From a virus, in IMG/VR virus record IMGVR_UViG_3300045988_145590: 38,758 bases of DNA, one strand, 5' to 3'. Below the pieces are notes generated by a model that worked only from the letters and a program-made list of their open reading frames with translations, was not told the DNA's origin and made no database searches. Below, one piece after another: positions 3,191-38,462 of the stretch. The position numbers and the translations under genes are program-made. Position 1 is the stretch's first letter. Each line of letters starts with the position of its first letter.

Positions 3191-3319
3191 ATGACAGAGG
3201 AAGAATATAAGCAGAAAATCATAATGATGTTAAACGATATTCATTCAATAGAAGAAATCGAAGAAATATACACAGTTGTTATGTGGTATTTTATTAATCA
3301 ATCAAAAAGAGAGCATTAG
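3191..3319 (+). CDS. hypothetical 42-aa protein
   Basis: AAAGGAGAAG RBS lies 2 nt before the ATG. The internal start was chosen within the track ORF 3125-3319. Confidence 0.4.
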   Translation: MTEEEYKQKIIMMLNDIHSIEEIEEIYTVVMWYFINQSKREH

Positions 3320-3333
3320 TCGCTCTCTTTTTT
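3304..3333. terminator. bidirectional rho-independent terminator
   Basis: AAAAAGAGAGC - ATTAGTC - GCTCTCTTTTT. It has an A-run on one side and a T-run on the other, and it overlaps the converging ends of 3191-3319 and 3316-3690. Confidence 0.6.
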
Positions 3334-3690
3334 CATATTTTCTGCTAACGTTAAAAGAAAATTTTCCAGTGCATCTTGCTGATCTTCTGGTGCATTGAGA
3401 TAGGTTTTTAATATAATTCGTCCCTTATCAGAAAGATTATACTGACTTGCTAATTTATCAAGAAGAGTTTCTGGTACTTTTGTGAACATTTCCCCAGTAC
3501 CTTCGGTAAGCCAGAAGTAATCTACATTAAATTCTTTGCAGATTAATTTAGATAATTGACTTGTCAAGTTAAATACCCCATTTTCAATTCTACTTACAGA
3601 AGCCTTAGTGATTCCTAATTTGTTACCGAAAGCTTCTTGACTTAAATTCAAAGTTTTTCTTAGCTCTTTTACTCTATCGCTAATTTCCAT
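3316..3690 (-). CDS. CI-like XRE-family HTH repressor
   Basis: N-terminal HTH LRKTLNLSQEAFGNKLGITKASVSRIENG. The gene is divergent from the early operon and sits next to the integrase region. Confidence 0.85.
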   Translation of the reverse strand: MEISDRVKELRKTLNLSQEAFGNKLGITKASVSRIENGVFNLTSQLSKLICKEFNVDYFWLTEGTGEMFTKVPETLLDKLASQYNLSDKGRIILKTYLNAPEDQQDALENFLLTLAENMKKESD

Positions 3691-4214: not shown

Positions 4215-4519
4215 AGCCATTCTCGTACTTCTTTTAGAAAATCGTAAGTTTTCTTTAGCAAAGTATTTTCTTCGGCTTCAATAATTGCATTAATTTCCAA
4301 TGTAATTAAGTATGGATGATTGTCAGCCCAACTATTTTTAACCAATCCATCTTTACTTAACTTTCTAAAAGCATCACATATAAATTCTTCATCTTCATTA
4401 GGGAACATTGATCGTAACTTATTCCAGTCAGAGAAAGTTTTTTGGTGATTTTCACTGTATTCTTTCACCATGTATTTTAGATAAAAATTAGCTAATTGTG
4501 TAAGTTTCATTTGTTTCAC
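4211..4519 (-). CDS. YjcQ-like winged-helix protein (reverse-strand moron)
   Basis: The pattern FRKLSKDGLV..HPYLITLEINAIIEAEEN..KKTYDFLKEVREWL parallels B. subtilis YjcQ. RBS is GGGGAGGGGG. Confidence 0.5.
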   Translation of the reverse strand: MKQMKLTQLANFYLKYMVKEYSENHQKTFSDWNKLRSMFPNEDEEFICDAFRKLSKDGLVKNSWADNHPYLITLEINAIIEAEENTLLKKTYDFLKEVREWL

Positions 4520-4924: not shown

Positions 4925-5110
4925 ATGAATGAACTAAAAAAAATTAGAGAGCGATTAGGACTCAATCAAAAAGAAATGGCTGAACACATAGGCGTGTCTG
5001 CGTCTTATTATTACAAAGTAGAAAGCGGAAGCCAAAATCCAAGTTATGAGTTTTTGAAAAAAATAAAAAAGGCATTTCCAAACATAAGCATAGATAAAGT
5101 GTTATTTTAA
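4925..5110 (+). CDS. Cro-like XRE-family HTH protein, 61 aa
   Basis: LKKIRERLGLNQKEMAEHIGVSASYYYKVESG HTH motif. Confidence 0.8.
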   Translation: MNELKKIRERLGLNQKEMAEHIGVSASYYYKVESGSQNPSYEFLKKIKKAFPNISIDKVLF

Positions 5111-5119
5111 AACAAAACA

Positions 5120-5144
5120 CTTGTAAGAGGGCAATTCTTACAAG
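5120..5144 (+). terminator. 9-bp hairpin after the Cro-like gene (no clear U-tract)
   Basis: CTTGTAAGA - GGGCAAT - TCTTACAAG. Confidence 0.3.
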
Positions 5145-5506
5145 CGTCTGTCTTAATTTGTTTACCTAACATTCTATGCAAAATGTGAAATATAAGTTTT
5201 AAGTTTTATCCCTAACTTTCCAGCTAGTAATAAATCAAAAACCTTATATATACATTTGCGCCATATTGCCCATAGCGCTTCTATGTAGAATTCCATCACT
5301 TAAGCAGTTTAAGTTCTGCATGTAGCCTTTAAAAAGCTGATTAAAGGTTGCCCTTTAGTCGATGGAATATGAGTTTATGTTCTCCAACAGTTGCACTCAT
5401 ATGAAAGGAACAGGGCAAAATCAAAAGTTGTGTCAAAAAGACCACTCTCCATTCTGCCCAAAGGCAAGAATATATCAACACAATTTGGAAATCATGAAAA
5501 GTATTT
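5145..5506 (+). ncRNA. candidate structured non-coding RNA or leader (unclassified)
   Basis: No RBS-supported ORF. Stems at 5322-5351 (11 bp including 2 G-U), 5367-5402 (8 bp) and 5413-5459 (8 of 9 bp). The stretch is visibly less AT-rich than its flanks. Confidence 0.3.
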
Positions 5507-6335: not shown

Positions 6336-6578
6336 ATGAAAAAACAGTTAGGTTTAGAAGTTCTGGATTATCCATTTCTTGGATATAGAGAAATAATGGC
6401 AGTTCTTAAATGTACTGCAACGGTTGCCTATGAAGTTATTGATGATGTCATGAATGGAAAAGATGAAAATGGTTCTCCATTAGTAGATCAGTCAAAAATG
6501 CCACCGTTCAAGTCAAAGAAAATACCTACATCAGTGTTCTGTAAAAAATACGGAATACGAAAAAAACTAAAAAAGTAA
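6336..6578 (+). CDS. putative excisionase-like / DUF3173-like HTH protein, 80 aa
   Basis: YREIMAVLKCTATVAYEVI is helix-turn-helix-like and the tail is basic. GGGAGG RBS is present. Confidence 0.35.
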   Translation: MKKQLGLEVLDYPFLGYREIMAVLKCTATVAYEVIDDVMNGKDENGSPLVDQSKMPPFKSKKIPTSVFCKKYGIRKKLKK

Positions 6579-6586
6579 CATAAAAC

Positions 6587-6700
6587 ATGTTCTCTTTGTT
6601 GCGTGAGCATATTTGTCTAATCTTCTGCTTGCATTTAGATTCTCCTCGTATATAAACACCTTTTACTAAGGCAAGTATGCTCGCTCAACAAGGAGAGCAT
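6587..6700 (+). other. long imperfect stem-loop (25-nt arms, 64-nt loop)
   Basis: Arms at 6587-6611 and 6676-6700 form 21 Watson-Crick pairs, 3 G-U pairs and 1 mismatch. All wobble pairs are valid only on the + strand. Confidence 0.6.
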
Positions 6701-7244: not shown

Positions 7245-7306
7245 TTTACAGGGGGATTAAACGTCCTAGTAATGGATATTAACATATCAACGAAATAGAG
7301 GTATAC

Positions 7307-8170
7307 ATGAGAAAAAAGAGAGGATATATAGACTATGACTATGAAGCTGCATTCACAGATCCTATTGATTATTCAAATGAAAGAAATATAGAAAAACTTC
7401 TGCAGCAGGGAAAAGTGAAAAGTGTATATACTACCAAAACCATAAAAGCTGGAAATCAGTTTGAAGTAGAAATATATCCCAGTTTTACTAAAAAAGAAAG
7501 CACTGGGATGAACTTAAAGCCTAGAAGTTCTACAGCACAGAAAAATTTGAATGATAAAAACGCTAGAAAAAAATTAGAGCGTTTAATAAATGCTAACTTT
7601 AGCAATGGAGATTTATGGGTAACGTTAACTTATGATAATGAACATCTTCCAGAATCAATGAAAGACGCATTAAAGAATATTGGAAACTATATGAGAAGAA
7701 TCAATTACAGAAGAGAAAAAATGGGATTATCAAATGCAAAATATATATACATTACAGAATACAATCCAAAGAAAAAGATACGCTGCCATCATCACTTAAT
7801 CATGGATGGAGCGTTAAGTATGGATCTTGTGGAGAAAATGTGGAAATATGGAAAAAGAAACAATGTAAGAAGAACACAGGAAGATGAAGATGGAGGTTTA
7901 ACAGGTTTAGCAAAATATCTTGTGAAAGATCCTGCTGGGAGTAAACGCTGGTGCAGTTCTAAAAATTTGAAAAAACCAGTAGAAAGTAAAAGCTATCATG
8001 CATTCAGAAGCAGGCAGGTTAGAAAAATGGTAGAAAACAGAGAGTGTGTAAAAGAGCTACTAGAAAAAAGATACAAAAATAGAAGTCTGATTAATTTTGA
8101 AATAAAGAAAAATGAGATTAATGGTTACTTCTATGTATATGCAAGAATGACGGAAAGGAGAAATCAATGA
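7307..8170 (+). CDS. HUH rolling-circle replication initiator (pC194/phiX174-superfamily-like Rep)
   Basis: Motif 1 LWVTLTYD, motif 2 RCHHHLIMDG (HUH) and motif 3 GLAKYLVKD (catalytic Tyr), in canonical order. Confidence 0.8.
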   Translation: MRKKRGYIDYDYEAAFTDPIDYSNERNIEKLLQQGKVKSVYTTKTIKAGNQFEVEIYPSFTKKESTGMNLKPRSSTAQKNLNDKNARKKLERLINANFSNGDLWVTLTYDNEHLPESMKDALKNIGNYMRRINYRREKMGLSNAKYIYITEYNPKKKIRCHHHLIMDGALSMDLVEKMWKYGKRNNVRRTQEDEDGGLTGLAKYLVKDPAGSKRWCSSKNLKKPVESKSYHAFRSRQVRKMVENRECVKELLEKRYKNRSLINFEIKKNEINGYFYVYARMTERRNQ

Positions 8171-9054
8171 AAAGAAAAGATTTAGAAGAACACATAGAAG
8201 AATACCTGTTAGAAGAGCAAGAAGACGAAAAAGCAAAAAACACGCTGATACATTACAGACACATCATTAATATGTTCGTTTCTTCGCTTCCAGATGATGA
8301 AATAACAAAAGTGGATTTCATGCGTTTTAAAGAAATAATGCTGGAGAAGTATAAGCCTAAGACCGTCAGTAACTATATAACGATTGTAAACAAATTTATA
8401 AAATACGTAGAAATGTCAATGGATGAAAGCATACAGGATTTCGATTTTAACAGGATGAAGAAATACTACAGTAAACAGACTTTAAAAAACATCAAGATTC
8501 AGCAGGAAGCCAGTTTAAAAGAAGTGCTAGAGCCTATTGATTTAAAACGTATGCTTCGCATGGCTAAAAAGCTGGAGGAATGGGATTTATATTACATTAT
8601 GAAGGCTATCGCTTATACAGGAGTACGAGCAGAAGAGTTAAAAATATTCACAGTAGAAAATCTGGAGTCAAACTATATCAAAGTTAAGAATAAAGGAAAG
8701 ATACGAAACGTAATCGTGCCGCAGGATTTACGAAGGGATTTACTGAAATACTGCAAAAATGCAGGAATTACTACGGGTTATATATTCCCCGGAAAGAAGT
8801 CTGGAACAATGCTACACAGTACGACAATTTACAAGCGATTAAAGAAGTTGGCTGGACAATGCAGAGGTGTAAAGAAGTCAAAAGTACACGCTCATTCATT
8901 TAGACATTTGTTTGCGATTAAATATATGGAAGAATACGGAAATATTAGTGAACTGGCGGATATTCTAGGACACTCCAGCATTGAAACAACACGTATATAC
9001 ACAAGAACCACCGACAAAATGAAGCGAGAGCGCATGGAACGTATGAAATATTAA
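8167..9054 (+). CDS. Xer-like tyrosine recombinase (second recombinase in the genome)
   Basis: AYTGVRAEEL, HAHSFRHLFA and LGHSSIETTRIYT motifs. The start overlaps the rep stop (ATGA at 8167-8170). Confidence 0.9.
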   Translation: MKRKDLEEHIEEYLLEEQEDEKAKNTLIHYRHIINMFVSSLPDDEITKVDFMRFKEIMLEKYKPKTVSNYITIVNKFIKYVEMSMDESIQDFDFNRMKKYYSKQTLKNIKIQQEASLKEVLEPIDLKRMLRMAKKLEEWDLYYIMKAIAYTGVRAEELKIFTVENLESNYIKVKNKGKIRNVIVPQDLRRDLLKYCKNAGITTGYIFPGKKSGTMLHSTTIYKRLKKLAGQCRGVKKSKVHAHSFRHLFAIKYMEEYGNISELADILGHSSIETTRIYTRTTDKMKRERMERMKY

Positions 9055-9440: not shown

Positions 9441-9869
9441 ATGATGTTTGAAGAAGAATTAAAAAAGGAGAAAAATCCTGCTGTTATTAGGATAGGGAAT
9501 TATTTAAAGAAAAGAGCTGAAACAGATACTTCAGTTAAAAATAATCTGAACAAGGAAAACAAATCTCTAAAAGAATGCTGGGATTATGTTTTGGGAGAGG
9601 TTGCAAAAACGATGTATAGAAATGGTAATTTTGGATGTGCTGCAGGAGATGATGAAGATCTATATGCATTGGCAGTACATTACTATGACGAGGATGATAT
9701 CAAAATTGAACCACTTCCTACAAATATGAAAGTTGAAGCAAAAATGGATGAAGATAAAAAAGAGGAAAAAACTGCAGAAATCGAACCTAAAGAAATACAA
9801 AAAGAAAAAGTAAAAAGAATTTCAAAAAGCAAAAAAGACCCTGTAGATGGACAGATTAGTTTGTTTTGA
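9441..9869 (+). CDS. PcfK-like protein (family that includes AcrIIA9)
   Basis: The pattern IRIGNYLKKRAE..ECWDYVLGEVAK..GCAAGDDEDLYALAVHYYDEDDI plus a Lys/Glu-rich tail is followed directly by a PcfJ-like gene, as in pCF10. Confidence 0.55.
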   Translation: MMFEEELKKEKNPAVIRIGNYLKKRAETDTSVKNNLNKENKSLKECWDYVLGEVAKTMYRNGNFGCAAGDDEDLYALAVHYYDEDDIKIEPLPTNMKVEAKMDEDKKEEKTAEIEPKEIQKEKVKRISKSKKDPVDGQISLF

Positions 9870-9877
9870 GGTGGATT

Positions 9878-11182
9878 ATGAAAGATACGAAATTATTGGA
9901 ACAATTAGGGGATACAAAACTTAAATGGCCCAAAGGACTTAGAAAGTATATATATAATGAAACCCTGTACAAAACAACAAATGAATGTACTACATATTAT
10001 GTTAATACTTTAGAAATTTGGAGAAAACGTTTATTAATGAGAACTTTTGCTTTCTGTGTTCCTAAAGGTGTTGATCGTCCATTCGATATGGGAATACAAG
10101 AAGTTTGCAGAAGATTAGAGGGAGAAAAAGAAGTATTGCTTTGTCAAATTGAAAATAGTTCGATGGGAGGAAGAACAGTATATTTCACAGAAACAGGGAA
10201 GTGGATAACTAGAAAAGAAAGGTCTAGTTATTATGCTTGGTATACTGGTGGTAAAAGTAATTGGTGGTTCTTTGATTATGATATGTTTGATTATAAGGAA
10301 TGGATGAATAAGTTAGAAATGCCATTTTGTGGATATGATTCACCGAATTATGTATATAAGATACCTTTTTTTCAGTATGTTGAACTGTATAAAAAATATC
10401 CAAAAATAGAGCTTTTGGCTAAAGGTGGTATGTGGAAGTTGATTACCGGAGCAAGATATTTAAACTTAAAAGGTAAGTCATTTGAACAAATTTTTAAAAT
10501 ATCTTCTTGCTGGAAAAAACATATCAAAGAGTTGGAAATAAGCGATATATTGCTTATTAGAAAAAATGACATTCATACCATGAATGAATTAAATTATTTT
10601 AAAAAAGCATCTTCGAGAAATCTAAAATACATTAAAAAATATTTTAATAGCAAAACAATAAACTATGTAAATAAGTTCTCGGATAATTTTCCATTCAGCG
10701 AATACAATGACTACTTACGAATGGCAGAAGAAATGGGATGTCAAATGGAAAGGAATAGGGTGTTGTTTCCAAAAGATTTACATGAAGCACATGACCATAT
10801 GCTTAATCACTATCAAGAGGTTAAGGATAAGGAAGTAAATGAAGGAATAGAGAAAACAGCTAAAAAGCTGATGAAATATAAATTTAATTCAGATGGTTTA
10901 TTTATAGTTCCAGCAATGAATAATAAAGAGCTGATTAATGAAAGTAGAGTGCTAGATCATTGCGTTAGAACATATGCAAGTAGAGTTTCAAAAGGGGAGA
11001 CAGGTATTTTATTTATCAGGAAAAAAGAAGAACCAGAAACACCTTTTGTAACTTTAGAACTTAAAGGTAAAAGAGTTGTTCAAGTTAGAGGATATAAAAA
11101 CAATGTACATAATCCCCTTGATCAATCAGTTATAGACTTCGTACACAAATGGGAACAAGAATTTAGATTGGAAGGGTTTTAA
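9878..11182 (+). CDS. PcfJ-like protein
   Basis: C-terminal LDHCVRTYASRVSKGETGILFIRKKEEPETPFVTLELKGKRVVQVRGYKNN is typical of the PcfJ-like domain. ATG 9878 was preferred over the TTG at 9866. Confidence 0.6.
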   Translation: MKDTKLLEQLGDTKLKWPKGLRKYIYNETLYKTTNECTTYYVNTLEIWRKRLLMRTFAFCVPKGVDRPFDMGIQEVCRRLEGEKEVLLCQIENSSMGGRTVYFTETGKWITRKERSSYYAWYTGGKSNWWFFDYDMFDYKEWMNKLEMPFCGYDSPNYVYKIPFFQYVELYKKYPKIELLAKGGMWKLITGARYLNLKGKSFEQIFKISSCWKKHIKELEISDILLIRKNDIHTMNELNYFKKASSRNLKYIKKYFNSKTINYVNKFSDNFPFSEYNDYLRMAEEMGCQMERNRVLFPKDLHEAHDHMLNHYQEVKDKEVNEGIEKTAKKLMKYKFNSDGLFIVPAMNNKELINESRVLDHCVRTYASRVSKGETGILFIRKKEEPETPFVTLELKGKRVVQVRGYKNNVHNPLDQSVIDFVHKWEQEFRLEGF

Positions 11183-12691: not shown

Positions 12692-12895
12692 CTAATCTCT
12701 TAAAGTAAGTTTCCCATCTTCATATTGACACTTGCAAATATTTAAAGAGCAATGATTTTCTAAACATTGATGACCGCATATATGGCTGGCAAACCTATTG
12801 TGTTCATCATTATGTAAAAATACTTCAATTGTTACATACTTTTTAATTGCTGGGCAATATGTTTTGATGGTGCGGTGTCTATTCACATAAGACAT
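12692..12895 (-). CDS. Cys/His-rich 67-aa protein (reverse-strand moron)
   Basis: It has its own promoter and a GAGGTG RBS. Sequence includes ..HICGHQCLENHCSLNICKCQ.. Confidence 0.6.
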   Translation of the reverse strand: MSYVNRHRTIKTYCPAIKKYVTIEVFLHNDEHNRFASHICGHQCLENHCSLNICKCQYEDGKLTLRD

Positions 12896-12912
12896 ATGAT
12901 CACCTCAAAGAG

Positions 12913-12941
12913 ATTATAAAATAGGCGCAAAAATATGTAAA
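12913..12941 (-). promoter_or_regulatory. promoter of 12692-12895 (TTTACA - 17 nt - TATAAT)
   Basis: Read from the reverse complement of 12913-12941. Confidence 0.6.
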
Positions 12942-13093
12942 TAATGACATAAAAACAGGGTTAAAAATTTCAAAAAGTTTAAAACTGAAAAAAGTAAAGA
13001 AAAGCCTTTATTTATAAGGGATTATAGGGATAAAGTCAATCAATATAATATAGGGTTAAATTGACAGTAGAAATAGAATAAAGAGAGGTAAAA

Positions 13094-13237
13094 ATGGATA
13101 AAAAGAAAGCGATGGAAATTATTTCAAGATGGATTGATGTTAGATCAATAGCTGGTTATGAAATAGTAGGAATAGGGTTTAAAGGAATGAAAGAAATAAG
13201 AATTAGTTTTAAGAAAAAGGATGTGAAAAAGAAATGA
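13094..13237 (+). CDS. hypothetical 47-aa protein
   Basis: GAGAGG RBS. The stop overlaps the next start (ATGA). Confidence 0.45.
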   Translation: MDKKKAMEIISRWIDVRSIAGYEIVGIGFKGMKEIRISFKKKDVKKK

Positions 13238-13947: not shown

Positions 13948-14274
13948 ATGGAAGGAATAGAGATAGTAGAAAAGGTATTGGGAAATAGATCAGCATACGA
14001 AAAAACGGTTTATTTATTAAAATACTATAGAGATTTAAAGCAGGGAAAAAGAATTAATGAAAAATACAGAAGTGTGTTGTCATTGATGGATGAAACAATA
14101 AAAATGATTGAAGATGATGAATGTTTTGGTGTTATAGAGGGGTTATATATTGACGGTTTAACATATGAAGAAGTAGCAGAAAAGTTAAAAATGGATAAAA
14201 GAACAGTATATAGACAACGTAGAAGGCTAATACGGAGAATATCAGTGATTTTATATGGAGATAGGGCTTTATGA
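13948..14274 (+). CDS. late transcriptional activator, sigma-70 region-4-like HTH (ArpU/RinA-type position)
   Basis: GLTYEEVAEKLKMDKRTVYRQRRRLIRRI. It is the last gene before the late operon. Confidence 0.6.
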   Translation: MEGIEIVEKVLGNRSAYEKTVYLLKYYRDLKQGKRINEKYRSVLSLMDETIKMIEDDECFGVIEGLYIDGLTYEEVAEKLKMDKRTVYRQRRRLIRRISVILYGDRAL

Positions 14275-14296: not shown

Positions 14297-14351
14297 TGTC
14301 AAAAACGTGTCAAAAAAATGTCAAAAATATGTCAAAAAAGTGTCAAAAATA
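14297..14351. repeat. five tandem 11-bp repeats TGTCAAAAANN
   Basis: Copies start at 14297, 14308, 14319, 14330 and 14341, with an exact 11-bp period. Confidence 0.95.
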
Positions 14352-14412: not shown

Positions 14413-14706
14413 ATGGAAATTCAAGAAACTATTACAGAATTTATAAAACCAGAATTATTAGTGCTTATTCCGGTTTTATTTTTTATTGGTGTTGCAATTG
14501 TAAAAAGCAATACTGAAAACAAGTTTATTCCGTTTATTCTGATGGGAACCGGTATAGCATTAAGTGGCTTGTGGGTGTTTGCAACAAGCGAGATAGCAAC
14601 TTCTAAAGATATTGCATTAGCTATATTTACAGCGATTGTACAGGGAATATTAGTAGCTTCCGGTGCGGTATTAGTGAATGAAACAGCGAAACAGGTGAAA
14701 AAGTAA
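14413..14706 (+). CDS. holin-like membrane protein, 97 aa
   Basis: Three hydrophobic segments and a charged C-terminus. It lies immediately upstream of the endolysin cassette. Confidence 0.65.
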   Translation: MEIQETITEFIKPELLVLIPVLFFIGVAIVKSNTENKFIPFILMGTGIALSGLWVFATSEIATSKDIALAIFTAIVQGILVASGAVLVNETAKQVKK

Positions 14707-15012
14707 ATGGACTATTATGCAATTGTAGGAATGGTTGTGATTGCTTTTATTGCATTGTTTGGCTTTCTTCATTCTTTTAAAAAGAGTATCGAGGATGAAA
14801 AAAAGCCAATGCAGGAATTGAACAACAGCATCATCCGTTTAAATGTGAATTTTGAAAATATGCTAAAAAATGACCAGATACGAGATAATCGGATAAGAAT
14901 TCATGGGAAAGAAATAGATGAATTAGATGATCGTTTAAATGAAGTTGAACATGAGCAGTCAAATCACGAAACAAGAATTTCAAGTCTTGAAAGATGGAGG
15001 GAAAAACAATGA
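14707..15012 (+). CDS. N-terminal TM plus coiled-coil protein (holin-associated / XhlA-like?)
   Basis: TM segment YAIVGMVVIAFIALFGFL, then a coiled coil. It lies between the holin and the lysin. Confidence 0.5.
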   Translation: MDYYAIVGMVVIAFIALFGFLHSFKKSIEDEKKPMQELNNSIIRLNVNFENMLKNDQIRDNRIRIHGKEIDELDDRLNEVEHEQSNHETRISSLERWREKQ

Positions 15013-16049
15013 AGTTATTTGGTATTGATATTTCGGAACATAACGGAAATGTTGACATGAAGAAAATCAAAAACAGCGGAGTTAAATTTGCAATCATCCG
15101 TGCATCATGGGGACATTTTCAAGAAGATAAACAATTAAGAAATAATGTAAAAAAATGCAACGATGTTGGGATGAATTATGGATTGTATCACTATTCATAC
15201 GCACGCAATGATGCAGAAGCAAAACAGGAAGCAGAAAACTTTTTGGCATTAGCTAAACAATTCAGTGGGCGCAGCTATCCACTAGTATTAGATATGGAAG
15301 ATGCTGATGGCTGGAAAAAAGAGCAGGGTGTTTCAATGGAACAGGAAGTGCGCACAATCCGTATATGGAAAGAAATTATTGAAGGTGCAGGGCAATATTT
15401 AATGCTTTACTGCAACAAAGATTGGTGGAATAAATTGCGTGCTATTGATGCAAAACTGATTGATAGCATTGACTTATGGCTGGCGCATTGGGGCATTTCT
15501 GAACCATCTGTGAATTGTGGGATTTGGCAATATTCAAGTGACGGAAAAGTTAACGGATCAAGCGTCAGAACAGACGTTAATTATGCGTATAAAGATTATC
15601 CATCATTAATAAAGGGAAGTTCATCAAAACCATCTGAACCAGCTAAACCTAGCAAGCCATCAAAGCCTAACACCAAGTACAAAGTTGGTGATACAGTCAA
15701 TATTAATGGTATTTATGTATCAAAAGATTCAAAAGAAAAATTGAAGCCAGCAGTTTCAAGTGGAAAAATCACAAAAATTTATGCAGGTTCACACAATCCT
15801 TATTTAATTGGAAATGGTACAGGATTTGTAAACGATGATTGCATTACAGGTAAAAAAGGAAGCACTTCATCAAAAACATTAAAAGTTGGTATGAAAGCTA
15901 AACCAAAAAAAGCAGTATCTTATGACGGTGTCAAACTAGATTCTTTTGTTACAAAAAAATATTTTAAAGTTATTGAGGTTGAAAAAAAACGTGTAGTACT
16001 TGGAGACGGTATAAATACTGCTTTCAATATTGATAATTTGATTTATTAA
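15009..16049 (+). CDS. endolysin: GH25 muramidase plus two SH3-like cell-wall-binding repeats
   Basis: KLFGIDISEHNG.. is a GH25 N-terminus. A PSKPSEPAKPSKPSKP linker is followed by two repeats (KVGDTV.. and KVGMKA..). Start refined to ATG 15009 behind GGAGGG. Confidence 0.9.
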   Translation: MKLFGIDISEHNGNVDMKKIKNSGVKFAIIRASWGHFQEDKQLRNNVKKCNDVGMNYGLYHYSYARNDAEAKQEAENFLALAKQFSGRSYPLVLDMEDADGWKKEQGVSMEQEVRTIRIWKEIIEGAGQYLMLYCNKDWWNKLRAIDAKLIDSIDLWLAHWGISEPSVNCGIWQYSSDGKVNGSSVRTDVNYAYKDYPSLIKGSSSKPSEPAKPSKPSKPNTKYKVGDTVNINGIYVSKDSKEKLKPAVSSGKITKIYAGSHNPYLIGNGTGFVNDDCITGKKGSTSSKTLKVGMKAKPKKAVSYDGVKLDSFVTKKYFKVIEVEKKRVVLGDGINTAFNIDNLIY

Positions 16050-16061
16050 GAAGTGGTTTAA

Positions 16062-16553
16062 ATGTCAAAAAAAGCAGGTCGTAAAAGTGCTTATGAACAA
16101 AAAATAAAACCAAGATTAAGCGAAATAAAAAAATGGCTTGAAAAAGGTGCTACAGAAAAGTCAATTGCGAAGAAATTGGGGATTTCCTATTCAACATTCA
16201 ATAAATACAAAGTTGAAAAAACGGAATTTGCGGAACTTTGTAAAAATAGAGGAAAATGCGTTGATGATATTGAAAATTCAATGTTTGAAGCTGCAATTGG
16301 TGGGAAACAAACTTTAAAAAAAGTTATGAAAGTAAAGCATGTAGAATATGAAAACGGAAAACGTTTAAAAGAATACGAAACGCTTGAACCATATGAAGAA
16401 GAGGTTTATTTTCCACCTAATACAACCGCTGGTATTTATTTATTAAAGCATTGGGGCAAAGACAAAGGCTATACGAATGATCCTGCTACACTTCGTTTAA
16501 AACGTGAAGAATTTGAACATAAGAAAGAAATTGATGAAATGAATAATTGGTAA
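16062..16553 (+). CDS. orphan TerS-like protein (HTH plus AGIYLLKHWG motif)
   Basis: N-terminal HTH KSIAKKLGISYSTFNKYK and C-terminal PNTTAGIYLLKHWGKDKGY resemble pac-type small terminases. No TerL gene follows it. Confidence 0.5.
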   Translation: MSKKAGRKSAYEQKIKPRLSEIKKWLEKGATEKSIAKKLGISYSTFNKYKVEKTEFAELCKNRGKCVDDIENSMFEAAIGGKQTLKKVMKVKHVEYENGKRLKEYETLEPYEEEVYFPPNTTAGIYLLKHWGKDKGYTNDPATLRLKREEFEHKKEIDEMNNW

Positions 16554-16565
16554 GGCGGTGATGCA

Positions 16566-19500
16566 ATGAGAAGTATATGTAACATTGATTTCAAAAATAA
16601 TGTGGCATGGGGTTCATCTGCATCTGCTCAAAGCATTAACGAAATATTATTAAGCATCTATCCTACCGAAAACATGAAGAGTAACCTACGCATTGAAATC
16701 ACGGATACCAAGGGAAAAGTTATAACAGAATCTGTTGAACGTGAGAGAAATGGTTTAATCAATCATACCCTCTCTTCCCTTTATTATTTAACAGCAGGAA
16801 CATTTAAGTTACGCTTGTTGTCAGACGAAGAGAACAGCTCTTATGTCTTGTATAAAACACTTGAAAACCTTACTGATGGTGATGATATTGTATGCAAGTA
16901 TCGTTTTGCTACACAGACATTTGAGGTTTATAAAATCGTGATTGAATCTAGTGCTGGCAGTGATTATGATGATAAACCGCTATGGGATGCAGTTGAAGAA
17001 ATTAGGGTTAAATACTTAACTGTTGATGCGTTTAATGCTGAAAAAGCAACCATCTATAATCTGATTGCTGAAAAAGCAAATATTACAGACTTAACAGCGA
17101 TTAATGCTGAAATTGAAAACTTAAAAGCTAACAAAGCTGATATAGGAGAATTAAATGCAGAGATTGCAAAGGTAAATGAACTGATTGCGAAAAAAGCAAA
17201 TGTTGATGATTTACATGCGATAGAAGCAACAATTGAACAGTTAAATGTTCATATTGCCAACATTGATAAAGCTATTATTGATGTAGCACATATCAGTGAT
17301 TTAGAAGCAATCAATGCTAAAATCGAAAGTATTGAAGCAGGAAACATTAATACAGAAGCATTAGAAGCACATTTTGCACGAATAGACTTGGCTAATATCA
17401 AAGATGGATGTATTACAACCGCAATGATTGGTGAAGGTGTTATAGAATCTGCACAGATTGCTGATGGTTCTATAACAGATGCGAAGATTGTCACATTAAC
17501 AGCTAACAAATTAACAGCTGGGCGTATTGATGCATCTGATATTGAGGTAGTCAATTTGAATTGCGCTAATTTAACAGTTGGAACAATCAACGGACATCAG
17601 ATAACAAATGGTGCTATTGATTGGGATAAGCTAGCAAGTCAAGTTGGTGATACGATAAATAACGCAGACGAAAACGCATCGCAGGCGTTGGATGATGCGT
17701 TGAAAGCATATCAGGAAGCACAGAAAGCAAACAGTGCAGCAGGAACGGCACAAAGCACTGCAAATGGTAAGAATACAGTTATTTATGCATCCGCACAACC
17801 TAGCACATCTGGAAGAAAAACAAATGATGTTTGGTTTGATACTGATGATAGTTATAAGATGTATTACTTCAATGGCACAGCATGGGTAGCTGCTCAATTT
17901 GGAACAAATGCAATCAAGAATGCAAGTATCACAACCGCATTGATTGCAGATGCAGCTATAAACAATGCTAAGATTGCAAATCTTGATGCTGGTAAGATTA
18001 CATCTGGTTATATTTCATCAGATAGAATCCAAGCAGGTAGTATCGTTATAGGTAAACTTGACGATGCAACAAAGAAAACAATTACAGATGCAAATAGCAA
18101 TGCTTCAAAAGCGTTAAGTGATGCAGCTGCTGCAAGTTCAAAAGCTGGAAATGCACAAAGTACAGCAAATAGTGCGTTAAGCAAGGCAAACAATGCGCAA
18201 AGCACTATTGACAATATGGAAGTTGGCGGAAGGAATTTATTACTTAAAACAAAAGAATATATACCAGCTAGCAATACTAATTTGTCAGGAAGCATGGCTA
18301 GCAACGGACAATTTGAAATAGCAAAAGATAAATTTCAAGACTTCACAGTACGATTTTTAAATTCTGTCCCTCAACCAGTTAACGGTAGTGGAAAAGCTGT
18401 ATCTGAACATAGAATAAAAAATTTTAATTACAAAGAAATATATACATTTTCTTTTTGGGCTAAGGGAACTTTAAATGCTTTATGTTGTTTCTTTTACGGA
18501 GCAAAAACTGGATATGTTAAAGCGAGAGTATTAGCTACTAGCACTGGTTATTCTAATGCTACATTCGGAAACGGTAGAGCACCATTAAAAATTGCTACTA
18601 ATTCATGGAAAAAATATTGGGTTACATGGGAATTAGGTAGTAGTGGAGATTTAAGTATTGATAAATTAGCGCTTATTCGTACCGATACCGGTACAAATCA
18701 AGGTAGTCTAATGGTATGTGGCGTTAAACTTGAAAAAGGAAATAAAGCTACAGACTGGACACCAGCGCCAGAAGATGTAGATCAGAAAATTTCTGATACC
18801 GATGCTAGAATTACAGAAGTAGACAGATATATAGCAAACTGGTGTTATAACAACGATAAAACATATATCAACGGTGGAAAGATATATACAGGCACAGTAA
18901 ATGCGTCACAAATAGCAGCTAATGCAATCATAGCCGGCAAGATAGCAGCTAATGCAGTAACAACTGCTAACTTACAAGCTGATTGTGTAAATGCAGATAA
19001 GATAGCTGCTAAAGCAATTAACGCAGAACATATCAATGGTGCAATTATCACAAGTGATAAGATTGTAGCTGGTGCGATCACAGGCGATAAGATAGCAGCC
19101 AGAACGATAGATGCCACAAAGATAGTAGCAAATACGATAACTGCCGCTGAAATCAAAGCAGGAACTATCACAGGAGATAAAATAGCAGCAGGAACGATTG
19201 ATGCATCTAAGATTAAAGCAGGAACGATTACAGCTACACAGATAGCAGCAAATGCAATAACATCTGAAAAGATTACAGCTGATGCAATAACTTCTGCGAA
19301 AATAAAAACGGATGCAATCAAATCAAGAAACTATGTAGCTGGTTCTGTTGGCTCTTTCTTGAATTTAGCAGATGGTACATTTACAAGCAAAAATTTGAAA
19401 TGGACAGCAGATGGAAGTATTACAGCAAGTAATGTAAATCTAACAGGCGCAATAACCGCAACAGGTGGAAAAATTGCAGGATGGAGCATAGGCAATTCAA

Positions 19501-20630
19501 CTATATCTAAACAAAGTGGAGATTTTTATGTTGTATTGAGTTCAAGTTTAACCAGTAATGGAGATGTACTTGTTGTAAGAAAAGGAACATCATCATACAC
19601 ATATCCGTTCTGTGTACGAAACGATGGAACGTTATATGCATCAAATGCAACAATCACAGGAAAAATATCTGGTTCAAGTATTTCAGGTGGAACTATATCT
19701 GGTGCATCTATTACAGGCGGAAGTATTACATCAGGTACATCAATAAATGTTACAACTGATTTAAAAGTAGGTAACAACATTTATTTGAATCAAGGGATAA
19801 ACTCAATAAAACAAATTGTTTTTGCAAGTGGAAATATGATTATGAATACATGGACAAATAGTTATAACTATTTAAGTGTGCGTTCTGATTATAGATGTGC
19901 ACTGGTTTCTGGCAATGCGCAAATAGCGGCGGTTGGAAATACTGGCGAAGTAGAGATAAATGTAAACGGCAATGGCACATGGATAGGTGATAAGTATTCG
20001 GCAGGTGGATGGCTTGGTTTTTACAATTGGGCACACGGCACTCGTAAAGGTTGGTTTGGTCATGATGGAGGAACAAGTTTTAATTGGTGGAATGAATCGA
20101 ATGGAACAAATGGTGTGTTTTTAGATGCTACAGCAAATGGTAATTGGACACATGGTAGATTTTGCCCATCGTTTGGTGGAATGGCGCTAGGTTCATCAAA
20201 CAATAGATGGTATAGGTTATATGCTTCAAATGGAAGTGATACATCATCAGATATTCGATTAAAAACAAACATAAAAAAGTATGATGAACGTTATGAACGA
20301 ATGTATATGGAGTTAAAGCCTGTTACCTATGAGTTAAAAGAAAATCTAGGACAGACACAATGCGGATTGATTGCACAATGGGTATATGATGCAATGATAA
20401 ACAATGGCATCGAAGAAAATGAATTTGGCGCATATAATCATCGTTTGGAAGATGATAGTTATGGTCTAGTATACGAGCAGTTTACATCACTTAATATGCA
20501 CATGATTCAAAAGACTATTAAGCGAGTAGATACACACGATGATGAAATAGCTAGATTAAAAGAAAGAGTTACAGAATTACAATCAAAATTAAATGCCTAT
20601 ATATTAGGAGAAATGGAGATAAGAACATGA
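16566..20630 (+). CDS. tail fibre / receptor-binding protein, 1354 aa, with C-terminal S74 intramolecular-chaperone domain
   Basis: Coiled-coil and 10-residue xAxxIxxxKI repeats, a central globular domain, and SSDIRLKTNIKKY..LKPVTYELK.. (S74-type autoproteolytic chaperone) from about 20247. Confidence 0.85.
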   Translation: MRSICNIDFKNNVAWGSSASAQSINEILLSIYPTENMKSNLRIEITDTKGKVITESVERERNGLINHTLSSLYYLTAGTFKLRLLSDEENSSYVLYKTLENLTDGDDIVCKYRFATQTFEVYKIVIESSAGSDYDDKPLWDAVEEIRVKYLTVDAFNAEKATIYNLIAEKANITDLTAINAEIENLKANKADIGELNAEIAKVNELIAKKANVDDLHAIEATIEQLNVHIANIDKAIIDVAHISDLEAINAKIESIEAGNINTEALEAHFARIDLANIKDGCITTAMIGEGVIESAQIADGSITDAKIVTLTANKLTAGRIDASDIEVVNLNCANLTVGTINGHQITNGAIDWDKLASQVGDTINNADENASQALDDALKAYQEAQKANSAAGTAQSTANGKNTVIYASAQPSTSGRKTNDVWFDTDDSYKMYYFNGTAWVAAQFGTNAIKNASITTALIADAAINNAKIANLDAGKITSGYISSDRIQAGSIVIGKLDDATKKTITDANSNASKALSDAAAASSKAGNAQSTANSALSKANNAQSTIDNMEVGGRNLLLKTKEYIPASNTNLSGSMASNGQFEIAKDKFQDFTVRFLNSVPQPVNGSGKAVSEHRIKNFNYKEIYTFSFWAKGTLNALCCFFYGAKTGYVKARVLATSTGYSNATFGNGRAPLKIATNSWKKYWVTWELGSSGDLSIDKLALIRTDTGTNQGSLMVCGVKLEKGNKATDWTPAPEDVDQKISDTDARITEVDRYIANWCYNNDKTYINGGKIYTGTVNASQIAANAIIAGKIAANAVTTANLQADCVNADKIAAKAINAEHINGAIITSDKIVAGAITGDKIAARTIDATKIVANTITAAEIKAGTITGDKIAAGTIDASKIKAGTITATQIAANAITSEKITADAITSAKIKTDAIKSRNYVAGSVGSFLNLADGTFTSKNLKWTADGSITASNVNLTGAITATGGKIAGWSIGNSTISKQSGDFYVVLSSSLTSNGDVLVVRKGTSSYTYPFCVRNDGTLYASNATITGKISGSSISGGTISGASITGGSITSGTSINVTTDLKVGNNIYLNQGINSIKQIVFASGNMIMNTWTNSYNYLSVRSDYRCALVSGNAQIAAVGNTGEVEINVNGNGTWIGDKYSAGGWLGFYNWAHGTRKGWFGHDGGTSFNWWNESNGTNGVFLDATANGNWTHGRFCPSFGGMALGSSNNRWYRLYASNGSDTSSDIRLKTNIKKYDERYERMYMELKPVTYELKENLGQTQCGLIAQWVYDAMINNGIEENEFGAYNHRLEDDSYGLVYEQFTSLNMHMIQKTIKRVDTHDDEIARLKERVTELQSKLNAYILGEMEIRT

Positions 20631-20887
20631 TTACAAGTGAAAAGAAAAAGCAGATTGTTTTAAAAAATTGTATCAAGGCAGATGATAAACCAGTTAAATA
20701 TCAGGAAATCACAATCAACAGTGAAAACCCAGAAGATATGACATTTACAGATTACTTTGCTAATGATGAAGCAAAAGCAACGTATAAAGAAAATCGTACA
20801 GAAATTAGAAAGCTGGAAGCAGCATTTGAAGATGAAGCTTATACAGAGCAAGAAGCATTGGCGAGTTATAAAACATTGGAGGAATAA
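20627..20887 (+). CDS. hypothetical protein, 86 aa
   Basis: The ATG overlaps the fibre stop codon (ATGA). Confidence 0.55.
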   Translation: MITSEKKKQIVLKNCIKADDKPVKYQEITINSENPEDMTFTDYFANDEAKATYKENRTEIRKLEAAFEDEAYTEQEALASYKTLEE

Positions 20888-20890
20888 AAC

Positions 20891-21244
20891 ATGAAGATTA
20901 CAAACGGAACTATATATGCAGCACAAAGCGCATTGGACAAGTTAAGCAATGCTGATTTACCAATTAAGACAGCATATGCAGTAAAAAAGAATGTAGATGC
21001 AATTAAAAAGCAAATTGCATTTATCAATGACAGAAGAAACGAATTGATTCGCAAATATGGGAAAGAAGATAAGATTGATACAGAAGATAAAGAAGCAGTT
21101 GCAAAATTCGTAAATGATTTTAATGAAGTGCTTGGCATTGAAGAAGAAATTGAAATCAACACAATTGATGTTGAACAATTAGAAGGTGTTAAGCTTTCTG
21201 CATCTGATCTTGATGCGTTGGCATTCATGCTATGTTTACATTAG
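20891..21244 (+). CDS. hypothetical protein, 117 aa
   Basis: GGAGGA RBS. Confidence 0.55.
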   Translation: MKITNGTIYAAQSALDKLSNADLPIKTAYAVKKNVDAIKKQIAFINDRRNELIRKYGKEDKIDTEDKEAVAKFVNDFNEVLGIEEEIEINTIDVEQLEGVKLSASDLDALAFMLCLH

Positions 21245-21903
21245 ATAACTTCTATAAATCAGATGAATGGCGCAATTTGCTGAATGTGTTGAAATCAGAG
21301 CGTGAGCGTGAAGGCGTTCTGTATTGTGAACATTGCGGTAAACCTATTATAAAGAAGTTTGATTGCATTGGTCATCATAAGCACGAACTAACAAACGCAA
21401 ACGTAAATGATTACAACATATCATTGAATCCAGATAACATCATGCTTATTCATCATAAATGTCACAACATTATCCATGAAAGATTTGGGCATGAGCAACC
21501 TAAGAAAGTTTATATTGTTTATGGCGCACCGTGTTCTGGTAAATTATCATGGGTAAAAGAGAATGCAGGCATAGATGATTTGATACTTGATATAGATTCG
21601 ATCTGGGAAATGATAAGCAACAATGATAGATATGTTAAGCGTGACAGATTAAAAGAGAATGTATTTGGCATTCGTGATTGTTTATTAGAACAAATAAAGA
21701 TGCGTAAAGGTAAATGGAAGAATGCATATGTCATTGGTGGTTATCCTATGAAGATGGAAAGAGAACGATTAGAGCAACGTTTGAATGCTGAAAGTATATT
21801 CATATCAGAAGATAAAGAAGTATGTTTAGAACGTGCGAAAGCAAGTAATAGAGTTGGATGGGATAAATACATCAATGAATGGTTTGATAGATATATGCCA
21901 TAG
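21232..21903 (+). CDS. HNH endonuclease fused to a P-loop NTPase/kinase-like domain
   Basis: CEHCGK..IGHHKHEL..LIHHKCHNIIHE (HNH) is followed by YIVYGAPCSGKLSW (Walker A). Confidence 0.8.
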   Translation: MFTLDNFYKSDEWRNLLNVLKSEREREGVLYCEHCGKPIIKKFDCIGHHKHELTNANVNDYNISLNPDNIMLIHHKCHNIIHERFGHEQPKKVYIVYGAPCSGKLSWVKENAGIDDLILDIDSIWEMISNNDRYVKRDRLKENVFGIRDCLLEQIKMRKGKWKNAYVIGGYPMKMERERLEQRLNAESIFISEDKEVCLERAKASNRVGWDKYINEWFDRYMP

Positions 21904-27741: not shown

Positions 27742-28017
27742 ATGGCAGAAGTAAATCTATTAGAAAAAGTTAAAAACTGGATGGGGTTTAGTGGTAACAA
27801 CTACCAAGACGAACGCCTAAAAAGTTACATTGATGAAATAAAGCAATATCTATTAGATGGTGGGGCATCGCAAGAAATTGTTGATGCGCCAACTTCTGCT
27901 GGTGTTATTGCTAGAGGTGTTAGTGATTTATATTATGAAGGTGCATTATCACCATATTTTAAAGAACGTGCAACGCAGATTTGCTTGAAGAAGGTGAATA
28001 AAGATGTACAAACCTAG
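27742..28017 (+). CDS. head-tail connector (gp6-like)
   Basis: LLEKVKNWMGFSGNNYQDERLKSYIDEIKQYL pattern, size and position. Confidence 0.65.
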   Translation: MAEVNLLEKVKNWMGFSGNNYQDERLKSYIDEIKQYLLDGGASQEIVDAPTSAGVIARGVSDLYYEGALSPYFKERATQICLKKVNKDVQT

Positions 28018-28345
28018 TGCGCCTTTCAATGTTTCTATGATGGTATTAGTTCCAACGTTTGAAAATGTAAATGGTGTGCCAAAAAAAACATATTCAAACG
28101 ATGAGATGATGATTCAAGGCAGTTTTAGAACGTTTGGCGGTACTGAAAAAGTTGTAAATGGTGTTTTAACACTAGAAAATACAGCGGTTGTAGAAACATT
28201 TTTCGATCCAACAATTAAAGCAGATTGCAGAATTAAATTGCTTGATTATGGTGAAGTATATGAAATCATGGGCGAGCCAGAAAACATAGAGTTAAGAAAT
28301 CAGTTTCTAAAATTCAAGGTTAAAAAAATAGGCGGTAAACCATAA
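28004..28345 (+). CDS. head closure / head-tail adaptor protein
   Basis: Size, position and C-terminal pattern (CRIKLLDYGEVYEIMG). Confidence 0.6.
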   Translation: MYKPSAPFNVSMMVLVPTFENVNGVPKKTYSNDEMMIQGSFRTFGGTEKVVNGVLTLENTAVVETFFDPTIKADCRIKLLDYGEVYEIMGEPENIELRNQFLKFKVKKIGGKP

Positions 28346-28758
28346 TGGCTAGAAATAAATTAACAATCAGTTTTGATGGGTTTGAGGAAATCATGGAAAA
28401 GCTGGATCGTGCAACAGCCGACACGAAAGAAGTCACAGAAAGAGCATTACAAAAGTCTTATGATGTGGTTACACCTAACATTGAAAAAGCGATTGCACCG
28501 CATCATTTAACAGGTCAGACAGAGCAATCACTTGCTAAAAGTGAAAAAGTTGAATGGGAAGGCACAAAAGCATATATCAAAGTAGGGTTTAACATCAGTA
28601 AAGGCGGTTTAGCATCTATATTTCTGATGTATGGTACGCCTAGAATGCAGCCAGATAAGAAACTGTATAATTCTATTTATGGTTCATCAACAAAGAAAAA
28701 AGTGAAAAAAGTACAAGAAGAAATATTTCAAGAAGAATTAAGGAAGGTGATGGGATGA
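28345..28758 (+). CDS. HK97 gp10-like tail-joining protein
   Basis: Position, and the motif APHHLTGQTEQSL. Confidence 0.6.
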   Translation: MARNKLTISFDGFEEIMEKLDRATADTKEVTERALQKSYDVVTPNIEKAIAPHHLTGQTEQSLAKSEKVEWEGTKAYIKVGFNISKGGLASIFLMYGTPRMQPDKKLYNSIYGSSTKKKVKKVQEEIFQEELRKVMG

Positions 28759-29099
28759 AAACAGAATTGATTAACTTATTGAAAACGTTTGGCTTTCCTG
28801 TTTATCGTCAAGGTTCAATGAACAGTGAAGAAGATTATCCATCATCTTTCTTTACTTTTTGGAATATTGAAACGCCAGAAGATAAGCACTATAACAACGA
28901 AGCAGCACGTGCAGTGTGGGGCTTCTGGGTATATTTATACAGTGACGATCCATCAATTGTAGATGCAAAACTAGAAGAAGCTAGAAAGCTATTAAAAAGC
29001 AATGATTGGATTGTAGAAGGAAAAGGTGAAGATGTAGCCAGTGATGTAGAAACGCACACAGGGCGCATGTTTACATGTTATAAAATTGAAAATTATTAG
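28755..29099 (+). CDS. tail completion protein (putative)
   Basis: Position immediately upstream of the major tail protein. Confidence 0.5.
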   Translation: MKTELINLLKTFGFPVYRQGSMNSEEDYPSSFFTFWNIETPEDKHYNNEAARAVWGFWVYLYSDDPSIVDAKLEEARKLLKSNDWIVEGKGEDVASDVETHTGRMFTCYKIENY

Positions 29100-29109
29100 G
29101 AGGTAAAAC

Positions 29110-29772: not shown

Positions 29773-29791
29773 TTGAAAGGGGCATTGTGAT

Positions 29792-38296: not shown

Positions 38297-38446
38297 AGAC
38301 GAAAAAAAGACGAAAACTATCAAAAAAAGAGATAAAATATATAAATAATAGAAATAATAATAAATAAAATAATAAAAAAATAGAAAAAAATAAAATCTGG
38401 GTACCGGCACCATGTACGTCTAAAGCCTTTTTAAAGGCTTTTTTTA
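38297..38446. other. putative attP region
   Basis: Extremely A-rich tract with AGACGAAAA repeated at 11-bp spacing (38297 and 38308). A GC-rich island (38397-38420) ends in TAA and is followed by the terminator hairpin AAAGCC..GGCTTT TTTTT (38422-38446), immediately upstream of int. Confidence 0.3.
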
Positions 38447-38462
38447 ATGCTCGTTTTAAAAA

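Follow-up and report, generated by a model that had tools for sequence, protein, structure and literature searches.

A rolling-circle initiator coupled to an XerA-like recombinase, with a candidate dif-like site, in a temperate tailed phage

Here we describe the early region of IMG/VR virus record IMGVR_UViG_3300045988_145590, a stretch of 38,758 nucleotides that was analysed computationally at its full length (hereafter the window). The window forms a circular contig with a terminal overlap, its last 68 bp repeating its first 68 bp. Its rightward early operon carries the gene of a rolling-circle replication initiator (Rep) and, directly behind it, that of a tyrosine recombinase (YR); a conserved motif lies in front of rep, and a short element resembling the dif sites of Xer recombinases lies downstream of the pair. 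Loci compared with the window are designated by L numbers. The features at the center of the analysis are as follows.

7263–7295, + strand: Rep-linked conserved motif GTCCTAGTAATGGATATTAACATATCAACGAAA, about 33 nt, 12 nt before the rep start codon
7307–8170, + strand: HUH rolling-circle replication initiator (Rep), 287 aa, assigned from profile matches and motifs
8167–9054, + strand: XerA/XerD-like stand-alone tyrosine recombinase (YR), 295 aa, the start of which overlaps the rep stop (ATGA, 8167–8170)
12951–13073, + strand: conserved non-coding island, 123 nt, composed of an A-tract/AAAAAGTTT box, a hairpin and, as its 3′ end, the dif-like core
13038–13066, + strand: dif-like core AATCAATATAA / TATAGGG / TTAAATTGACA, 29 bp, with 11-bp imperfect inverted arms and a 7-bp asymmetric centre

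The initiator and its upstream motif

A first-pass annotation, made from the sequence alone, had recognized an initiator with three rolling-circle replication motifs at 7307–8170, and profile searches bear this out. Rep matches Pfam REP_ORF2-G2P with 40.9 bits against a cut-off of 27.8, and residues 38–286 match PHROG 3584 'replication initiation protein' at 6.3e-80. The motifs LWVTLTY (T106 and Y109), HHHL (H161–H163) and AKYLVKD (Y204 and K207) follow each other in order, and these residues are unchanged in 31 Rep homologues of 47%–85% identity. Comparison by sequence yielded no match of Rep to a solved structure. Its AlphaFold2 model has a predicted local distance difference test score (pLDDT) of 82.3, and the top Foldseek matches of this model in the PDB are HUH Rep nucleases, namely SIRV1 ORF119 (probability 1.0) and AAV5 Rep (0.93), with weak scores (best E = 2.4e-3, query TM-score about 0.3). 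Among the early open reading frames (ORFs), searches against Pfam, PHROGs and NCBIfam recognized no helicase, loader, primase, single-stranded DNA-binding protein (SSB) or annealing protein, in agreement with the earlier statement that no other replication gene can be recognized.

Members of the Rep family, annotated there as replication initiation protein, were found by tblastn in the Clostridium phages phiSM101, PhiS63 and Saumur, in Terrisporobacter phage TPDSL_ph2 and in phages of Latilactobacillus, Butyrivibrio and Faecalibacterium. When IMG/VR was scanned with a pattern, 521 of the first 600 candidates proved to be Rep relatives, and NCBI names some family members 'rolling circle replication-associated protein'. 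In the plasmid collection PLSDB, only six matches exceed 36% identity, all in 34–40-kb non-mobilizable replicons of C. perfringens and Paraclostridium; the two remaining matches are weak and partial (30%, E = 9e-6) and reside in 10–14-kb Staphylococcus plasmids. Phage phiSM101 is episomal (PMC3442830). It carries the PHROG 3584 Rep in its early lytic operon and a different plasmid Rep with ParA in its lysogeny region, which points to a role of the family in lytic replication. These latter genes (the separate 'plasmid replication protein' and the partition gene resembling ParA) occupy 27748–29855 of phiSM101 (L027), where other family members carry the integrase.

Judging from these matches, the Rep family is phage-typical, and Rep is the ordinary early initiator of a large family of gut Bacillota phages, temperate siphoviruses of Erysipelotrichales, Lachnospiraceae and Clostridia. 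A tailed phage with Rep only is not new in itself, and the family is already annotated in public libraries; the literature searched contained no paper on it. Tailed phages replicating with an HUH Rep alone would be common in gut Bacillota, and they are unstudied.

Alignment of the DNA upstream of rep gave the motif consensus GTCCTTGTAATrGATAkTAACAAGTCAACGAAA. With up to two mismatches, its core 16-mer is located upstream of rep in 76 of 79 IMG/VR loci, about 25–120 nt from the rep match and farther away in a few. It also occurs 5′ of rep in TPDSL_ph2 and phiSM101, in a weaker form in PhiS63, and is present with or without YR. One occurrence in a single window is not significant alone; the evidence for the motif comes from its position, which is kept across loci whose Reps are just 40%–50% identical. 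In the L031 lineage the motif overlaps the rep start codon, and thus its conservation is independent of coding. In most lineages, CTTGTwA and TwACAAG within the motif are able to pair into a short hairpin. The motif shares GATATTAA..ACA with the phiX174 origin CAACTTGATATTAATAACA, the phiX174 sequence of which was verified at 4299–4328 in gene A. We thus regard 7263–7295 as a candidate double-strand origin, with a nick possibly at TGG/ATATTAACA, by analogy with the cleavage position of phiX174. Such a conserved motif gives direct access to the question of how a rolling-circle initiator copies a double-stranded genome of 38 kb.

The recombinase and its candidate dif-like site

The ATGA overlap of rep with the gene of a 295-aa tyrosine recombinase, also listed in the first-pass annotation, is confirmed. 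Residues 120–283 of YR match Pfam Phage_integrase (1.3e-19), and Phage_int_SAM_4 is matched with 27.8 bits (cut-off 27). YR is built of a SAM-like core-binding domain and a catalytic domain, without an arm-binding domain, and its residues R154, K178, H243, R246, H269 and Y278 are unchanged in 10 lineages of 44%–84% identity. The closest solved structures by sequence are XerA 5hxy (3e-27), XerA 4a8e, XerD 1a0p and XerH 5jjv, and YR aligns over its full length with XerA 4a8e (residues 8–291). Its scores against the named Xer equivalogs of NCBIfam lie below the respective cut-offs: 121.8 versus 220 for XerA (NF040815), 76 versus 335 for XerC and 66 versus 330 for XerD. YR is predicted to be a catalytically complete XerA-like enzyme.

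YR is distinct from the tyrosine integrase whose gene crosses the contig join, as the earlier annotation had held. Prophages with the same coupled Rep–YR pair integrate by a large serine recombinase, which argues that YR is not the integrase. The 4-nt overlap of rep and the YR gene is kept in integrated prophages with YRs 84% and 57% identical to that of the window. The arrangements found are as follows.

Rep and YR adjacent: window, L020, L024, L028, L030, L031, L048, L099, L113, L114, L130, L111
YR 4–5 kb downstream of rep, behind PcfK, PcfJ and an o11333 homologue: L003–L009
YR homologues (34%–56% identical) with no detectable phrog_3584-type Rep nearby, some prophage-like: L112, L115–L129, L131–L190

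While the position of rep is constant, that of the YR gene varies among related phages, and about three quarters of 80 additional Rep loci, mostly of one abundant lineage, are without YR within 10 kb. Across 12 lineages, the identities of Rep and of YR to those of the window correlate with r = 0.91, which fits a pair inherited as a linked unit rather than captured repeatedly. According to record titles, the hosts are Erysipelotrichales and Coprobacillaceae (Thomasclavelia, Massilimicrobiota, Holdemanella, Absicoccus and Dielma) and Lachnospiraceae; records of clostridial or Terrisporobacter phages do not figure among the organisms named for the YR matches. YR is a separate, optional add-on, which in the lineage of the window stands directly behind rep.

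A short-word screen of the window against diverse loci was run at a threshold of 15/16, given that 13/16 is useless in A+T-rich DNA. It yielded two non-coding elements, the origin-like motif and a stretch in the 338-bp gap 12896–13233, which contains the conserved island; neither element had been noted in the first-pass annotation. The window and L020 share 86% identity in the island, compared with 73% in the rep–YR coding DNA, and the flanks are unrelated. The island alignment comprises 14 copies from 9 lineages; the hairpin in it is terminator-like, and the 3′ half of this hairpin resembles a –35 box. The window contains a single core, no second copy being present on either strand, and no second copy of the 123-nt island.

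All 30 YR-positive loci contain the dif-like design, with 47 sites in 270 kb, and none of the 48 YR-negative loci does (438 kb scanned), where YR-positive loci were counted if they extend at least 6 kb downstream of rep. The 30 loci correspond to about 25 distinct contigs and at least 8 arm lineages, so the counts are not independent, and the split is complete. In 80 bacterial-genome loci with YR homologues, the density of such palindromes within 400 nt of the YR gene is 12.8 times that found elsewhere (9 in 62 kb versus 14 in 1,242 kb), and in prophages lacking this Rep a site of the same kind lies within 50–150 nt of the gene of the YR homologue. The arms vary by lineage, for instance GGTGCGATAA/TTATCGAACC, GTCGTATAA/TTATACGTC and GTTACGTTTAA/TTAAACGTAA, and are nearly the same in both core copies of one phage. 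Their inner ends are ATAA and TTAT/TTAA, as in the dif sites of E. coli and P. abyssi. XerA recombines its own dif without a partner protein (PMC2958812). The segment 13038–13066 is therefore a candidate recombination site of YR.

Two further observations concern such sites and their surroundings. In L190, a Lachnospiraceae metagenome-assembled genome (CAMWTP010000006.1), two dif-like cores lie 158 bp apart at 10884–11048, directly after a YR homologue of 34%–37% identity, and their centres are reverse-complementary (TACAATA and TATTGTA); judged by its sequence, this arrangement looks like the layout of an invertible switch. In the window, a near-consensus promoter on the – strand at 12913–12941 (TTTACA, 17 nt, TATAAT) faces a small Cys-rich – strand ORF at 12692–12895, which makes the gap holding the dif-like island a divergent control region.

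Proposed roles of the pair

We favor a reading, to which we assign a probability of roughly 55%, in which Rep and its upstream motif form a phage rolling-circle system running on host enzymes, and YR is an optional XerA-like recombinase acting at its own core. Rep, a single-tyrosine HUH initiator, would nick the + strand at the conserved motif 7263–7295 and drive rolling-circle replication together with the host helicase and polymerase. This reliance on host enzymes would explain a phage without loader, primase and SSB. YR, without need of a partner recombinase, would bind the 29-bp core at 13038–13066 as a homotetramer and exchange strands between two copies of the core. Given the single core of the window, partner copies must sit on a dimer, a concatemer or a co-resident related genome. 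On replication products, the action of YR would yield monomer circles in a Cre/loxP- or Xer/dif-like resolution; between related phages, it would swap everything to one side of the core, that is, halves of the genome. Multimer resolution remains the most economical function of YR.

Several points weigh against this reading. Most Rep phages are without YR, hence YR is not needed for Rep-driven replication, and an HNH nuclease encoded beside the terminase suggests concatemer packaging, for which resolution to monomers is not obviously useful. The outer pairs of the origin-motif hairpin are missing from the very lineage of the window. The spacer of the core is 7 bp in every copy found, versus the 6 bp of dif, with search patterns that themselves demanded a 7-nt centre. 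This centre is better conserved across lineages than the arms, an uncommon trait in crossover regions and one that a hairpin with a conserved loop would also show. Furthermore, the core is always on the transcribed strand, 20–35 nt 5′ of a ribosome-binding site and start codon, and its left arm and centre make a TATAAT-like box with a –35-like hexamer 15–18 nt upstream. With these promoter-like boxes and its fixed place before start codons, the core could be mainly a promoter or operator.

The bearing of the core on accessory genes became apparent from its surroundings, which are listed here together with the two long stem-loops (SL1 and SL2) of the region.

6587–6700, + strand: SL1, a long imperfect hairpin with 32-nt arms (6587–6618 and 6669–6700) and a 50-nt loop
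9065–9240, + strand: SL2, a long hairpin with 23-nt arms and a 130-nt spacer, upstream of the o9253–PcfK–PcfJ block
9441–11182, + strand: PcfK-like and PcfJ-like genes (Pfam 7e-19 for PcfK and 3e-35 for PcfJ)

The PcfK/PcfJ-like genes, which had already been noticed behind the pair and are now assigned by Pfam, open a variable accessory block that extends to about 12950. The accessory blocks of relatives (L004 2022–4053, L007 949–1956, L015 10953–12329 and L024 9369–11614) hold a PAPS-reductase-like gene, Dam or N6/N4 methylases, DUF3850, DUF7666 and a SNF2 helicase, a content of the kind usually seen in anti-defence or early accessory regions. In eight YR-positive loci (L031, L069, L048, L062, L063, L067, L099 and L103) there are two direct core copies, 3.6–7 kb apart, with different centres, such as TATAGGG/TTCTAGG, TGTGTAG/TATGGAG and TTATAGG/TAATAGG. 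These two cores bracket a PcfK/PcfJ-containing block in L031, L069, L048 and L103, and PcfK/PcfJ were not detected between the two cores of L062, L063, L067 and L099. In the window, the position of the upstream copy, core 1, is occupied by SL2. Pairwise comparison located several breakpoints of homology at the cores. Over 4.5 kb, L048 and L063 share 99.6% identity until roughly 10 nt beyond core 1, where unrelated sequence sets in; the match resumes with the first left-arm base of core 2, the preceding 100 nt being different. The same pattern holds for L048 versus L062, and the homology of the window with L020 or L022 stops 7 nt past the right arm. In L031 versus L034 and L099 versus L103 the breakpoints lie elsewhere, not at core 1. 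The evidence consists of these explicit pairwise cases, as the automated test was not clean, the 100 nt to the left of the core being conserved themselves.

Both stem-loops, which the first-pass annotation had seen as brackets around the pair, are real structures, and neither delimits a unit. SL1 folds as single-stranded DNA with z = –4.41 (+ strand) and –2.21 (– strand), and three of its four arm mismatches are T.G on the + strand. Hairpins of this type, with changed arm sequences, occur 606–661 nt 5′ of rep in four lineages and were not found in L020 and L024, the closest to the window among those tested, and others. SL1 is thus a candidate for a single-strand origin or an mRNA structure, not a module boundary; its place 5′ of the candidate origin, on the strand to be displaced, would suit a single-strand origin, which is only a suggestion. 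SL2 folds with z = –4.69 (+ strand) and –3.93 (– strand). Hairpins of its type (stem CTCCATC..CATG) precede PcfK or Dam methylase in L003–L009, about 4 kb from YR, and SL2 belongs to the PcfK/PcfJ block, not to Rep and YR. The two stem-loops are not repeats of each other. Flipped spacers of SL1 or SL2 were found neither in the window and four near-identical contigs nor in five L003–L009 loci; the idea of an inverton was rejected on this single orientation, although assemblies favor the majority form and rare flipping is possible. An invertible segment elsewhere in the window, for example in the tail fibre gene, was likewise rejected, as no long-range inverted repeats were found within the window.

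Against this background, YR might have been selected for the exchange of accessory-gene cassettes instead of resolution, since sites with the same arms and different centres (heterospecific sites) flank the block; we consider this possible but unlikely. The block would be swapped between relatives without deletion, and the one-site window would be a reduced form that still exchanges half-genomes. The direct copies with different centres around the PcfK/PcfJ block speak for such an exchange, as do the likewise two-copy L062, L063, L067 and L099, and the replacement of the block between phages otherwise 99%–100% identical, with junctions at the cores and with core 2 and its right flank identical but the DNA before the site different. 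Nevertheless, the window, L020, L024, L003–L009, L030 and L113 have one site only, the breakpoints of two comparisons are not at core 1, and selection for a conserved terminator–promoter combined with ordinary recombination could yield similar junctions where little intergenic DNA is spare. An explanation centred on regulation, which we find improbable, takes the core as a promoter/operator or a 5′-leader hairpin, with YR or a co-inherited protein mainly regulating the operon that leads to the late activator gene. The sense-strand location of the core, fixed relative to downstream start codons, its TATAAT-like and –35-like boxes with a terminator-like hairpin in front, its distance of 0.9 kb upstream of the sigma/RinA-like gene (13948–14274) in the window, and one + strand T.G pair in L024 that fits RNA pairing are all consistent with it. 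However, the six catalytic residues of YR, invariant down to 44% identity, point to an enzyme and not only a binding protein; lineage-specific arm mismatches are kept in both copies, as expected of two protein half-sites; and the inverted-centre layout of L190 is a recombination layout. In addition, a scan for consensus promoters and terminators gave no enrichment over shuffles and called no + strand promoter at the core.

The first-pass annotation had also proposed that the pair is a replicon captured from an integrative mobilizable element (IME) or a plasmid, or else an element that lies nested in the prophage and is either still mobile or satellite-like. Pairs of Rep and tyrosine recombinase are typical of IMEs, and the present pair recurs in phages with different neighbors and different integrases. 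Of the captured-replicon proposal, it stands that the pair is a module of the phage replication region, whereas an origin from an IME or small plasmid does not, given that the Rep family is phage-typical and that its better PLSDB matches are only the six non-mobilizable clostridial replicons. A still-mobile nested element is contradicted by a search for direct repeats on either side of the block, which gave nothing beyond 70% matches at chance level, by a G+C content of rep–YR like that of the window (33.5% versus 32.9%), by the varying position of YR and by the many Rep loci without YR. Moreover, every occurrence of the pair observed was in the early operon of a phage or prophage, with its orientation unchanged; the dif-like site, 4 kb away from the pair, is still intact in integrated prophages, hence it is not the attachment site for integration; and the stem-loops are neither mutual repeats nor tied to the pair. 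The IME-like or nested-element reading is thus contradicted on every feature tested, and we deem it highly improbable. The 'Xis-like HTH' at 6336–6578 is a label without support from hidden Markov models.

To our knowledge, as far as limited literature searches go, neither the origin-like motif, nor a phage Xer-like recombinase strictly paired with a dif-like core, nor paired cores with different centres around an accessory block have been described before. The YR–site pair is compact and self-contained and, with at least 8 natural arm variants, might supply new tools for orthogonal recombination. If the sites are crossover points, sharp module boundaries and the shuffling of accessory and anti-defence genes would be explained. 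It is even conceivable, though doubtful, that the phages hold a natural counterpart of recombinase-mediated cassette exchange, in which an accessory/anti-defence block is fenced by two sites, alike in their arms but incompatible in their centres, together with an Xer-like recombinase that the phage itself encodes. If this were true, related phages would trade whole blocks precisely at 29-bp cores with no risk of deletion, and site-specific recombination would be a driver of phage mosaicism.

Genome setting and known systems

The remainder of the window has the following gene order.

38400–38758 continued by 1–856: tyrosine integrase, across the contig join
1171–2889, – strand: SIR2-like gene
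3316–3690, – strand: cI-like repressor
4925–5110: cro-like gene, followed by the rightward early operon holding rep and YR
13948–14274: sigma/RinA-like gene, followed by lysis genes and then by packaging, head and tail genes
14413–16049: holin and endolysin, upstream of the HNH gene and terminase
16062–16553: terminase-small-subunit-like helix-turn-helix protein, upstream of the HNH gene and terminase
16566–20630: fibre-like protein, 1354 aa, with 15/30-nt periodic repeats, upstream of the HNH gene and terminase

Once the 68-bp overlap is removed, the integrase frame lacks an ATG; the earliest start available is a TTG, from which the protein is 335 aa long, and an N-terminal piece (MKNAKRLFIEQF...) lies in a different frame. 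This break reflects a frameshift or else an error of assembly within an A-rich run. The neighboring SIR2-domain protein (572 aa) matches the candidate defence family PDC-S25 of PADLOC at 1e-116, and ThsA more weakly, and looks like a defence gene carried by the prophage. A FuFi-1 RNA (Rfam RF02986), matched over its full length with 115.6 bits versus a gathering score of 59.6, directly follows the cro-like gene at 5114–5344; it is on the – strand, antisense to the early operon. It is the sole match of the Rfam scan, in which neither stem-loop nor the 123-nt island matched a known RNA family. Between the sigma/RinA-like gene and the holin gene (14413), five tandem 11-bp units TGTCAAAAANN at 14297–14351 are likely a binding array for the late activator. 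The late gene order (14413–21903) is unusual in that the HNH gene and terminase come after the lysis and fibre-like genes.

Rolling-circle initiation in a tailed phage has a precedent in gpA of P2. Like gpA of phiX174 and other REP_ORF2-G2P proteins, the Rep of the window combines an HUH and a catalytic-tyrosine motif and is the sole recognized phage-encoded replication protein. The candidate origin is at the rep gene, as in phiX174, with the difference that it lies upstream of the gene in the window and inside the gene in phiX174. The window also differs from phiX174-type systems in being the 38.7-kb genome of a temperate siphovirus, in having one tyrosine in the catalytic motif YLVKD, and in that nicking is a prediction. 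Close counterparts are the phages with PHROG 3584 (phiSM101, PhiS63, TPDSL_ph2 and those of Latilactobacillus, Butyrivibrio and Faecalibacterium), in which the same family, at 29%–46% identity, has the same early-operon position. Unlike in the window, the neighborhoods in phiSM101, PhiS63 and TPDSL_ph2 have no adjacent recombinase, and no TATAGGG-type dif-like site was found in the parts of these three genomes examined.

For the recombinase, the closest systems by sequence and solved structure are archaeal XerA/dif, XerS/difSL and XerH/difH, in which a single recombinase acts alone. Their sites resemble the phage core in having 11-bp imperfect inverted arms that end in ATAA/TTAT, often beside the gene. 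In contrast to them, YR scores well below the NCBIfam XerA cut-off, its core has a 7-bp spacer, the system is phage-borne within an early lytic operon, and there are up to two sites per phage genome, with different centres. The Acinetobacter plasmid dif modules, integron cassettes and engineered heterospecific lox exchange likewise place accessory genes between short Xer-type sites and replace the block at these sites. The phage arrangement differs from all three in its direct sites with different centres, its self-carried recombinase and its phage context. Finally, Cre/loxP of P1 is neither a close sequence relative nor similarly arranged, given that gene and site are 4 kb apart in the window and that the phage integrates instead of living as a plasmid. 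Nevertheless, it comprises, as does the window, a phage tyrosine recombinase separate from the integrase and one short palindromic site per genome, and Cre acts on replicated copies in the way that we propose for YR.

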